Sequence record: MK962758
Source of the DNA: Shigella phage JK55
DNA: 64,000 nucleotides
Direction: 5' to 3' (one strand)
Shown here: positions 6,187 through 7,930 of the stretch, piece after piece
How the letters are laid out: the number at the start of each line of letters is the position of its first letter
Numbering within the stretch: the stretch's first letter is position 1
Translations under genes and position numbers: made by a program
Notes under the pieces: generated by a model
Told to the model about the DNA's origin: nothing
Databases searched by the model: none
Seen by the model: the letters and a program-made list of their open reading frames with translations, nothing else

Positions 6187-6744
6187 ATGAGATATTTGAA
6201 GTATGCTTCATGGATTTTCTTAGCTTTACTAGAACCATTTGCAGCAACCCTAGCAGTCATCTTAGCACCTTTCGTAGTTCCATTCTACAGTGAGAAGAAA
6301 GGGCATCTACCTTTTGGATTCAGATGGATGGAGACCTATGACAACCCGATTGATGGTGATAAAGGCCACGTTGAGAGATGGGCTAAGATTAGAAAGATTG
6401 GCAAGCTCGGTGTTTATATGCAGAGAGTTGGATGGCTCTGGAGAAACAAAGCTTATAACTTCTCTTACCATGTATTAGGAAGAGATGTAAAAGATGTTAC
6501 TAAGTGGAAAGGTAATATCAACGTAAGTTCTGACCCTGAAGATAATCAGACAGGTTATCTCCTAATGTGGAACAACAATGCTTGGGGATTATTCGCTTTT
6601 ATTCCGTCAATTAAAATCTTTGGTAAACAGTTTTACTGGAGAATTTATGTTGGATGGAAACTAAAAAGTGTTGTCCCAGAAGAAAGAGCATTCTCAAGGG
6701 AAAGAGTTATGTTGGCATTCTTTATTCATCCACTGAGAAAGTAA
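6187..6744 (+). CDS. membrane protein embedded in the tRNA array
   Basis: RBS aagagg 8 nt before ATG; hydrophobic N-terminus WIFLALLEPFAATLAVILAPFVVPF; 185 aa. Confidence 0.6.
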   Translation: MRYLKYASWIFLALLEPFAATLAVILAPFVVPFYSEKKGHLPFGFRWMETYDNPIDGDKGHVERWAKIRKIGKLGVYMQRVGWLWRNKAYNFSYHVLGRDVKDVTKWKGNINVSSDPEDNQTGYLLMWNNNAWGLFAFIPSIKIFGKQFYWRIYVGWKLKSVVPEERAFSRERVMLAFFIHPLRK

Positions 6745-6752
6745 AGATTTAA

Positions 6753-6825
6753 AGGGGATTAGTTTACAAGGTTAAAACCTCGGTCTTTGAAATCGAAGAA
6801 GTTGGTTCAATTCCAACATCCCCCG
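6753..6825 (+). tRNA. tRNA-Gln (TTG)
   Basis: acceptor aggggat/atccccc with A1.C72 mismatch, anticodon stem tcggt/atcga, loop ctttgaa, T-arm gttgg-ttcaatt-ccaac. Confidence 0.7.
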
Positions 6826-6830
6826 CCAAT

Positions 6831-6906
6831 GCTCCATTACTCCAATTGGCAGAGAGGCCAGACTTAAAATCTGTGTTATGTATCGGTTCGAATCCGATAT
6901 GGAGTA
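6831..6906 (+). tRNA. tRNA with anticodon TAA (Leu by anticodon; short variable arm)
   Basis: acceptor gctccat/atggagt, anticodon stem caga/tctg, loop cttaaaa, T-arm atcgg-ttcgaat-ccgat, discriminator A. Confidence 0.6.
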
Positions 6907-6914
6907 CCAAATTT

Positions 6915-6987
6915 AGCGGTATAGCATAACTGGCAATGCAGCAGTCTCTGAAGCTGTCTTATTAAGGTTCAAATCCTTATGCCGCTG
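6915..6987 (+). tRNA. tRNA-Gln (CTG)
   Basis: acceptor agcggta/tgccgct, anticodon loop ctctgaa, T-arm taagg-ttcaaat-cctta. Confidence 0.7.
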
Positions 6988-7021
6988 CCACTTCTAAGGG
7001 TTCTTACGAGAGTCCTTAAAT

Positions 7022-7094
7022 GTGGCCTTATCATAAATGGTAATGACCCATGCTGTGAACATGGTCTATACGGGTTCAAATCCCGTAGGTCACC
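7022..7094 (+). tRNA. tRNA-His (GTG)
   Basis: acceptor gtggcct/aggtcac, anticodon stem ccatg/catgg, loop ctgtgaa, T-arm acggg-ttcaaat-cccgt. Confidence 0.75.
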
Positions 7095-7102
7095 CCAATT
7101 TA

Positions 7103-7177
7103 TAGTCCAAGTAGCTTATATGGTTAAAGCGCGTGTCTGAAAAACATGAGAAGAGGGTTCGAATCCCACTGGACTAC
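7103..7177 (+). tRNA. tRNA-Phe (GAA)
   Basis: perfect acceptor tagtcca/tggacta, anticodon loop ctgaaaa, T-loop ttcgaat. Confidence 0.75.
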
Positions 7178-7195
7178 CAATTTCAAAGGTGCTTA

Positions 7196-7930
7196 ATGAA
7201 AGAGATGACAGAACAAGGTAAGGAGATTTTTAATCTCTTAAAAACCGGTAAAGGGTTTTCTAACCCACTTATTACTGGTGCAGCAGTTCTCGGTGGAACC
7301 GTAGCTGCTTCTACATCACTTGTAAGCTCTATTAGTTCTGTAACAGACCCTACAATGCAGGAGAAACTTGTTGCTGCTGGACTTACAACAGTCCTTCTAA
7401 ACAGCTTTACAACAAGCCTTACAAGCACTACAGCAACTACTAAAACTCTGACAGACTACGGTCAAAAGTCTATTGATGAGTTTTCATCACGTATGCAGGT
7501 AGCAAAGGGGTATTCCAATGTTATGGGTGCAGCAGGAGAGCAAGTTGGTTGTACACCATTCAGTGGTATCATGGGTGTTGCTACAGAGTATGGTCAAAAA
7601 GCTATTAACATGATGAACAGTACACTAGATAGTGTTAATGGTGTGTTAAGTGACTTACAAGATGCTATTGATAAGGGTCTTGATACTGTTTCTGATTTAG
7701 CTAATCAGGCTGTTAGTAAGATTAATGAAGGTATTTCAAAGATTACAGCTTATGCAGATGAAGTTGTGCAGATGATTGAAGAAGAAGCTTCCCTTATTGC
7801 AGAGTACCTTAAAACGAATATCAATGGGTTCTTAGCAGGTATCTTACCAGACTGGTTTGATGATGCCTGTAAAACTGGTGTGATTGACACTATTGCAACA
7901 CCAGAAATGAAGAGCGCATTACAGAAATAA
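7196..7930 (+). CDS. hypothetical protein embedded in the tRNA array (Ser/Thr-rich N-terminal half, helical C-terminal half)
   Basis: ORF-track start 7133 lies in the tRNA-Phe anticodon loop; ATG at 7196 follows tRNA-Phe and an aaaggtg RBS. Confidence 0.55.
   Translation: MKEMTEQGKEIFNLLKTGKGFSNPLITGAAVLGGTVAASTSLVSSISSVTDPTMQEKLVAAGLTTVLLNSFTTSLTSTTATTKTLTDYGQKSIDEFSSRMQVAKGYSNVMGAAGEQVGCTPFSGIMGVATEYGQKAINMMNSTLDSVNGVLSDLQDAIDKGLDTVSDLANQAVSKINEGISKITAYADEVVQMIEEEASLIAEYLKTNINGFLAGILPDWFDDACKTGVIDTIATPEMKSALQK

Follow-up and report, generated by a model that had tools for sequence, protein, structure and literature searches.

Two genes nested in the tRNA array of Shigella phage JK55: a candidate lysis-associated membrane protein and a candidate tape-measure-like protein

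Two conserved genes inside a tRNA array

We analysed a stretch of 64,000 nucleotides from Shigella phage JK55 (sequence record MK962758; hereafter the window), concentrating on two open reading frames (ORFs) that lie inside its tRNA array: ORF1 (positions 6187–6744, 185 aa) and ORF2 (7196–7930, 244 aa). Our joint best explanation, to which we assign a probability of roughly 0.45, is that both are genuine expressed genes of the tRNA operon, ORF1 encoding a lysis protein and ORF2 a tape-measure-like protein of the virion or of its assembly. That two real genes are nested in the array, as originally predicted from the sequence, is borne out by matches to Pfam families, by ratios of nonsynonymous to synonymous substitution rates (dN/dS) of 0.03–0.17, and by the transcripts of their Felix O1 counterparts, ORF48 and ORF49, which were detected by reverse transcription PCR (RT-PCR) in infected cells (PMC3185647, Table 3). 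The existence of these genes is in itself largely ordinary: both have been annotated since the Felix O1 genome, are found in more than 200 annotated records, and belong to the Pfam families DUF7338 (ORF1) and DUF7217 (ORF2). What the comparison adds is a case for a lysis role of DUF7338, a function listed in neither PHROGs nor Pfam, and grounds for seeing DUF7217 as a free-standing tape-measure-like module, in a group of phages used for Salmonella typing and biocontrol.

The 2.2 kb around both ORFs are 99.1% identical to Escherichia phage Andreotti, which places the window in Felixounavirus, and 95–99% identical to more than 200 records of this genus. The gene order is that of Felix O1: a Ro60/vWFA-like gene, the tRNA array, a small ORF, the terminase, the portal, and the remaining morphogenesis genes. 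ARAGORN identifies 25 tRNA genes between 3271 and 8104, the last being a tRNA-Cys; 23 of these are also recovered by Rfam, which reports no further RNA family in the region. The tRNA genes, both ORFs, and their expression signals are all on the plus strand. ORF1 is flanked by tRNA-Leu(CAA) (6090–6167), which ends 19 nt before it, and tRNA-Gln(UUG) (6753–6828), which begins 8 nt past its stop codon. The neighbours of ORF2 are tRNA-Phe(GAA) (7104–7179), ending 16 nt before it, and tRNA-Ser(GCU) (7932–8024), starting 1 nt past its stop codon. These four flanking tRNAs are recovered by both ARAGORN and Rfam.

The predicted boundaries and ribosome-binding site of ORF1 hold: its ATG is preceded, at a distance of 8 nt, by a Shine-Dalgarno motif that can be read directly in the sequence (AAGAGG, 6173–6178). 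The protein is 96–100% identical to those encoded by Felix O1 ORF48 (NP_944875), gene 0153 of Bas63, and the gene labelled "class III holin" in phage Mushroom. These homologues occupy the same site, between a tRNA-Leu (in some phages a tRNA-Arg) and a tRNA-Gln. Nothing substantial separates ORF1 from Felix O1 ORF48; the window only lacks the extra tRNA-Arg that directly precedes the gene in Felix O1 and UAB_Phi87.

The coordinates given for ORF2 are also correct, although its product has 244 residues and not the 245 first reported, a count that included the stop codon. The longest ORF begins further upstream, with a GTG at 7133 inside tRNA-Phe, and its 5' extension (7133–7195) is annotated as coding in some records, e.g., that of Andreotti. 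The decision to move the start out of the tRNA was right: the ATG at 7196 follows a Shine-Dalgarno motif, again read from the sequence (AAAGGTG, 7185–7191), its methionine is invariant in the orthologues of three genera, and the Pfam and PHROG matches begin at residues 7–8 of this shorter form. The gene corresponds to Felix O1 ORF49 (NP_944879) and to Bas63 gene 0159. Its protein is 93–99% identical within Felixounavirus, 82% to Mooglevirus, 45% to Kolesnikvirus, and 25–30% to Ackermannviridae homologues. Comparison of each gene with five to six orthologues yields dN/dS values of 0.03–0.17 for ORF1 and 0.09–0.13 for ORF2, indicating purifying selection on both.

The DUF7338 protein and host lysis

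ORF1 matches DUF7338 (PF24027) over its full length with a profile hidden Markov model (HMM) (residues 1–184, 206.6 bits against a gathering cut-off of 27 bits, E = 3e-61) and the PHROG family phrog_2143 with E = 1e-80. The search of NCBIfam and PADLOC returned nothing for it. The claim that it is a membrane protein is upheld by a conserved N-terminal hydrophobic helix at about residues 9–31 (coding positions 6211–6279). The Kyte-Doolittle maximum over 19 residues falls in this helix (2.11, against a family median of 2.25, N-terminal in all members), and an alignment shows that the position of the segment is kept across 31 relatives. The helix contains an invariant proline and an acidic residue, E16, which is aspartate or glutamate in almost all relatives and asparagine in one. 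As a short protein with such a predicted membrane-spanning helix, ORF1 has the general build of a holin. The remainder of the protein, which is basic (isoelectric point [pI] 9.9) and rich in tryptophan and tyrosine, forms a C-terminal domain in which 20 residues are invariant down to 31–37% identity, including T50, D52, W83, W85, R86, N87, R152, G156, W157, and K158. The AlphaFold2 (AF2) model, with a mean predicted local distance difference test (pLDDT) score of 94.9, combines a long helix with a small helical region and a beta sheet, the C-terminal alpha/beta domain spanning about 150 aa. No solved structure similar to the modelled domain was found, and searches of the ORF1 and ORF2 sequences against PDB chains returned only noise. 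Because R2 and K5 precede the helix and the stretch after it is acidic in distant members, the protein is expected to be oriented with its N-terminus in and its C-terminus out; the globular domain would then probably face the periplasm, behind an N-terminal signal-anchor helix.

The neighbourhoods of distant homologues provide the main argument for a function in lysis. In the Aeh1 group of T4-like phages (PX29, Aeh1, AsFcp), the DUF7338 gene is flanked by the tail-fibre genes and asiA, the place taken in T4 by the holin gene t. In PX29 and Aeh1, it is found 1 nt upstream of the lysozyme gene e, itself followed by a gene for an Rz-like spanin, and the arrangement extends to their Aeh1-group relatives by the same joined three-gene match. 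No match to the T holin was found in the genomes of the Aeh1 group among those listed, even at E ≤ 10. Among the more distant homologues, on IMG/VR contigs, the gene is directly upstream of a GH24 lysozyme (L073, L087), of an Amidase_3 (L083), of an Amidase_2 (three neighbour proteins, including that of L089), or of a GH108 (L072). The PHROG endolysin families recur among the neighbours of the family, as do, commonly, tail-fibre genes. Retention of a membrane protein gene in front of unrelated endolysin families is a pattern typical of holins. The endolysin and the spanins of the window itself are encoded elsewhere in the genome, not beside ORF1, and adjacency to endolysins is found in a minority of the distant homologues (L069–L100).

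T4 T, a class III holin, is the natural term of comparison. It shares with DUF7338 a single transmembrane helix near the N-terminus and a large C-terminal domain, which in DUF7338 is probably periplasmic. The T4 t locus, after the tail-fibre genes and beside the endolysin, is held by the DUF7338 gene in Aeh1-like phages, where T is undetectable. We rejected the idea that ORF1 is a divergent T: it has no match to the Pfam family Phage_holin_T at E ≤ 1, hhalign gives a probability of 0.1% to the alignment of DUF7338 with T4 T (a query sequence with residues 56–218 verified against PDB 6PXE), and the modelled fold is unlike that of the periplasmic domain of T (PDB 6PSK and 6PXE). The genome paper of Mushroom names its DUF7338 homologue a class III holin from topology alone (PMC4392139), a label that several records copy. 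The literature search retrieved no experiment on a holin role of DUF7338 and no report of an experimentally identified holin in Felix O1-type phages.

Several observations weigh against this assignment. ORF1 is missing from Moogle at the tRNA-array locus, and a Kolesnikvirus locus with ORF2 gave no match to it. Judging from place counts, roughly 300 T4-like genomes appear to have both T and DUF7338. A recognised holin is encoded beside the DUF7338 gene in L072 and L088, and DUF7338 may therefore not be the hole-forming protein. All Ounavirinae share a gene pair that is widely labelled "holin", that is conserved in Mooglevirus, Kolesnikvirus, and Hafnia phages, and that is also present in phages without ORF1. 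Finally, the transcript of Felix O1 ORF48 is maximal at 5 min, earlier than would be expected of a holin; the assay was a coarse end-point RT-PCR that also classes the capsid gene as early (PMC3185647).

The Ounavirinae pair consists in the window of two overlapping genes directly after the tail-fibre genes. The first (31475–31672) encodes a 65-aa membrane protein (phrog_402), and the second (31669–32040) a 123-aa protein that combines a coiled coil with a membrane helix at its N-terminus (phrog_4038). Relatives of the first protein of the pair (query residues about 3–112) are also encoded in RB49-like T4 phages; in one record, the match overlaps the annotated t. The "putative holin" of Moogle, for which two annotated stretches of the record carry no label, corresponds by homology to this pair. 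We regard the two genes as candidates for a holin that would be either the rival or the partner of ORF1.

When these points are put together, the genomic contexts favour, on balance, ORF1 as a membrane protein of the lysis cassette, acting as a holin or with one; the narrower claim that it is the holin itself is tentative and somewhat less probable than its negation. The protein would sit in the inner membrane and contribute to host lysis either as a holin with the class III topology of T4 T or as a partner or regulator of another holin. In Felixounavirus, its gene would have been displaced from the vicinity of the endolysin into the tRNA array.

The DUF7217 protein, tape-measure proteins and the virion

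ORF2 matches DUF7217 (PF23854) over its full length (HMM match at residues 8–243, 293.6 bits against a gathering cut-off of 29 bits, E = 1.6e-87) and belongs to phrog_2114. The protein is acidic (pI 4.5), rich in serine, threonine, alanine, and glycine, and has no signal peptide; its AF2 model is an all-helical bundle (pLDDT 94.3). Two cysteines (C119 and C225) and an N-terminal G-x-x-F-x-NPL motif are invariant in the family, whose members share the length of ORF2. Its matches in NCBIfam and PADLOC are weak and of the coiled-coil type (ZorA, JetC). Among annotated phage records and IMG/VR contigs, DUF7217 occurs only in Ounavirinae-type phages and Ackermannviridae, and a full profile search yields 209 representatives in metagenomes. 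In Felixounavirus, Mooglevirus, and Kolesnikvirus, no further protein gene separates ORF2 from the small ORF and the terminase, which places it at the start of the morphogenesis genes, whereas in Ackermannviridae the homologue lies between the capsid gene region and gp3, away from tRNAs and terminase.

The link to tape-measure proteins comes from profile comparisons. ORF2 has weak PHROG matches to tape-measure and baseplate-hub proteins, including phrog_305 (E = 6e-6). The C-terminal half of the DUF7217 profile matches four to eight repeated units in giant proteins of 1,400–2,900 aa, and both giant proteins that were scanned are strong PHROG tape-measure matches. With such proteins (phrog_305, phrog_58, phrog_1272), ORF2 has in common helical segments rich in alanine, serine, threonine, and glycine. 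By description, it can also be likened to the helical-bundle domain of T4 gp29, for which engagement of the inner membrane during injection has been reported (bioRxiv 10.64898/2026.03.06.709160). In contrast to tape-measure proteins, ORF2 has only 244 aa, and hence cannot measure the tail, and its gene is in the tRNA array, outside the interval flanked by the tail chaperone and baseplate hub genes. The phage has a tape-measure gene proper at another site (gene 0017 in Bas63, 742 aa).

A member of the family, annotated as "unknown structural protein" in LIMEstone1 (ORF129, 25.03 kDa), was detected with two peptides in purified virions (PMC3296691); we assigned the LIMEstone1 homologue of ORF2 to ORF129 by its size and its position beside gp3. 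The case for a virion protein is weakened by the composition of this same list, which also includes non-structural proteins, by the two peptides on which ORF129 stands, and by evidence from closer relatives: ORF2 is in neither the whole-virion shotgun proteome list of Felix O1 nor the table of structural gene products of Sf14, and it is not modelled in the virion structures of Bas63 and Sf14, both of which are within the PDB set that we searched. The cryo-EM papers on Bas63 and Sf14 mention neither the ORF1 nor the ORF2 protein. In addition, a terminator-like site lies between ORF2 and the terminase operon.

Two further assignments were considered. A Felix O1 protein named "Gp49", of 51 kDa, has been described as a major structural and possible sheath protein (PMC3185647). 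It cannot be ORF2, because ORF49 encodes 244 aa and 25.7 kDa; the name is probably an inconsistency of numbering that refers to gp63, of 48.9 kDa. The statement of the abstract that Gp49 is structural is therefore not transferable to ORF49, since the mass fits gp63. The position of ORF2 near the terminase could also suggest a small terminase or a scaffold. We provisionally set this aside, as Ackermannviridae, with an annotated T4-type gp22 scaffold and other T4-like structural genes, also have the homologue, at another locus.

We thus tentatively view ORF2 as a tape-measure-like helical module that might be present in the tail or head in low copy or in disordered form, or might act in assembly, a proposal with somewhat less than even odds. 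It would be a soluble, acidic helical bundle, related to the modules of tape-measure proteins but free-standing, and could serve in tail assembly or DNA injection as a low-copy protein of the virion or tail lumen, or as an assembly partner.

The alternative for both genes together is that they are accessory genes of the tRNA operon, acting for example in superinfection exclusion or against host defences, and are components of neither lysis nor the virion. This is close to the original prediction, which regarded proteins nested in such arrays as fitness factors rather than structural genes, a view that the results support only in part since the ORF1 family is tied to lysis cassettes and ORF2 is related to tape-measure proteins and has a homologue in virions. 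In favour of an accessory function, ORF1 is patchy, missing at this locus from Moogle and at one Kolesnikvirus locus with ORF2, and yet is 56–62% identical to proteins of T4-like phages and 81% to that of Av-05, which implies horizontal transfer. Its predicted architecture, a periplasmic domain anchored in the membrane, is also that of the T4 exclusion protein Sp. DUF7338 appears to share genomes with T in many T4-like phages and with the other candidate holin in Ounavirinae, the transcripts of Felix O1 ORF48 and ORF49 peak early, and PhageMaP reports that most lysis or membrane genes and genes of the tRNA region of Bas63 are non-essential, in a text on essentiality that does not mention genes 153 and 159. 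An accessory function has difficulty in explaining, however, why DUF7338 genes are placed directly upstream of four unrelated endolysin families and replace t in Aeh1-like phages. Nor does it fit ORF2, which is not patchy: it keeps a fixed site in the three Ounavirinae genera examined, and the family also occurs in Ackermannviridae, shows homology to modules of tape-measure proteins, and was detected in the virions of one phage. PADLOC offers no meaningful match for either protein. Overall, we consider the accessory interpretation unlikely.

Some records label ORF2 a "putative membrane protein" or "cytoplasmic membrane protein", which would make it an integral membrane protein with a role in, e.g., lysis control or exclusion. 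The label can be traced to residues 25–43, which are hydrophobic (Kyte-Doolittle 1.6) only in Felixounavirus and most Mooglevirus-type sequences, and the invariance of C119 and C225 could be counted in its favour. The family does not preserve this peak: the maximum has a median of 1.19 among its members and shifts in position, and the homologues of Erwinia phages and Ackermannviridae are polar there and rich in serine, threonine, and glycine. No conserved transmembrane segment is present in the DUF7217 family. Because residues 25–43 are polar outside Felixounavirus and most Mooglevirus-type sequences, DUF7217 is not an integral membrane family and the label is probably wrong. The lack of a signal peptide, the pI of 4.5, and the packing of the helices into a soluble-looking bundle (pLDDT 94) are all at odds with an integral membrane protein, and we give this possibility little credence.

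Transcription, genome ends and evolution of the array

The original prediction had both ORFs co-transcribed with the tRNAs from promoters at 3124 and 4620. Promoter-like hexamers are indeed present at both sites. The best match to a sigma-70 promoter (4620–4648, TTGACA-17-TATAGT, 11/12) has the same hexamers and spacing as "P45" of Felix O1 (PMC3185647), and the site at 3124 scores 10/12. Such sites are not more frequent in the region than expected by chance (16 found, 13.4 expected). Another promoter-like site, at 8186–8214, follows the last tRNA. From the 4620 site onward, no terminator is convincing until a good hairpin with a T-run at 8267–8290, after the last tRNA, which probably marks the end of the transcription unit of the tRNAs, ORF1, and ORF2, before the small ORF and the terminase. 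In Felix O1, the transcripts of ORF45, ORF46, ORF48, and ORF49 peak together at 5 min (PMC3185647). Co-transcription with the tRNAs is plausible given this joint peak and the lack of a terminator between 4620 and 8267; it is complicated, for ORF2, by the probable position of the genome ends, as detailed below.

Both coding regions lie 1–19 nt from tRNAs, which suggests a mode of mRNA release. By analogy with established tRNA processing, RNase P would cut at the 5' end of the downstream tRNA and the processing of 3' ends would free the upstream side, so that ORF1 and ORF2 mRNAs with short leaders would be released from a polycistronic transcript. At 7928–7932, RNase P cleavage at tRNA-Ser would leave the ORF2 mRNA with a 3' tail of 1 nt after the stop codon; termination might still work there, or translation might have to precede processing.

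The physical ends of the genome can be placed by homology. Those of UAB_Phi87, which is 95% identical in this region, were mapped by Bal31 digestion and run-off sequencing to a direct repeat of 608 bp (PMC4837284). The record of UAB_Phi87 opens and closes with the same 542 bp, which correspond to positions 6953–6412 of the window, and in an independent assembly, that of typing phage 15, a contig breaks at position 6409 of the window. A repeat of 608 bp counted from 6410 ends at 7018, directly before tRNA-His. The window would hence have a direct terminal repeat at 6410–7018, with a left boundary (about 6410) that is firmer than the right one (6953–7018). It starts near codon 75 of ORF1 and spans the 3' 60% of this gene and three tRNAs (Gln, Leu, Gln). 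If packaging is the same here, the cut site lies inside a coding sequence and the three tRNAs occur twice per virion genome. The virion DNA would begin in a truncated ORF1, followed by the three tRNAs, two more tRNAs, ORF2, and the structural genes; its other end would carry the tRNA array, an intact ORF1, and the second copy of the repeated tRNAs. Packaging would thus place ORF1 and ORF2 at the two extremities of the DNA, where they become contiguous only after end-joining, in circular or concatemeric form, and ORF2 would not be downstream of 3124 and 4620 in the linear virion DNA. We considered that ORF2 expression might be gated by the joining of the ends, an idea weakened by the presence of the ORF49 transcript at 5 min; either the delay for end-joining is therefore short or another promoter exists. 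A tRNA array that straddles the physical ends of the genome matters for phage engineering and for the order of gene entry and expression.

The association of DUF7338 with tRNAs extends beyond Felixounavirus. The family is found by tblastn in about 580 phage records, from Felixounavirus, many T4-like genera (56–62% identity), Aeromonas Aeh1-like phages, jumbo Serratia phages, Pseudomonas phage REC, and the Avunavirus Av-05 (81%). The gene is within the tRNA array in Felixounavirus, Av-05, the Pseudomonas Otagovirus REC, and Karamvirus-like (PG7-like) and Cronobacter S13-like relatives of T4. In 21 of the 22 T4-like and Av-05 loci examined from IMG/VR, tRNAs of the same strand precede it by no more than about 1.2 kb. 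Three contigs of only about 33% identity also have tRNAs immediately upstream. Most of the distant homologues (28–38% identity, L069–L100) have no tRNA within 5 kb, with five exceptions. A direct comparison is possible for Escherichia phage Av-05 (L043, rV5-like), whose locus at 4563–5939 corresponds to 5749–8024 of the window: the two have in common ORF1 (81% at the amino acid level) and segments with tRNA-Gly, an intergenic spacer, and tRNA-Ser(GCU). This suggests that pieces of the tRNA array are exchanged between unrelated myovirus families, with the DUF7338 gene carried along.

Expression of the gene seems to differ in T4-like phages, where a terminator hairpin usually precedes it. Dhakavirus homologues (L004, L053–L055, L059) have after this hairpin a perfect T4 late promoter, TATAAATA, at -34 of the DUF7338 gene, and the Karamvirus-like and Gelderlandvirus loci have a late-promoter box with one mismatch before it, which suggests that DUF7338 is expressed late in these phages. 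The least probable of the alternatives, that ORF1 acts on tRNAs (protecting or processing those of the phage, or countering toxins that target them), would account for its location in the arrays of several lineages, near tRNAs in 21 of 22 loci and in the three contigs of about 33% identity, but we think it very improbable given that distant homologues mostly lack nearby tRNAs, that the charges around the helix suggest a periplasmic domain away from tRNAs, that the segments shared with Av-05 point to co-transfer of array modules instead of a functional link, and that the T4-like gene usually follows a terminator, sometimes with a late promoter of its own, and is thus not simply part of the tRNA transcript.

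Returning to ORF1 as a lysis protein, a broader scenario can be drawn, which we find doubtful as a whole. DUF7338 would be an unrecognised and widespread family of holins, with the topology of T and an unrelated fold, which takes the place of T in Aeh1-like phages and is paired with four or more types of endolysins. It would have been captured into the tRNA arrays of unrelated myovirus lineages (Felixounavirus, Avunavirus, Otagovirus, and several T4-like genera), where tRNA processing would cut out its mRNA; the packaging cut of Felix O1-type phages would fall inside the gene.

The content of the array differs among close relatives: an HNH endonuclease gene separates tRNA-Tyr from tRNA-Asp in Andreotti, and three HNH genes are present in the array of Felix O1. 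Directly upstream of the array, at 1690–3105, is the gene of the Ro60/TROVE-like vWFA protein (DUF2828 and DUF7788; phrog_850, "RNA-binding protein"). According to the PhageMaP preprint, its Bas63 orthologue, gp130, counters the Ppl defence system, and some of the "tRNAs" of the array are speculated there to be Y-RNA-like partners of gp130. On the other side, immediately upstream of the large terminase, an ORF at 8327–8527 encodes an acidic protein of 66 aa (phrog_4397, with no function assigned). To our knowledge, no small terminase is known in this group of phages, and the position of this ORF makes it a candidate for that role.

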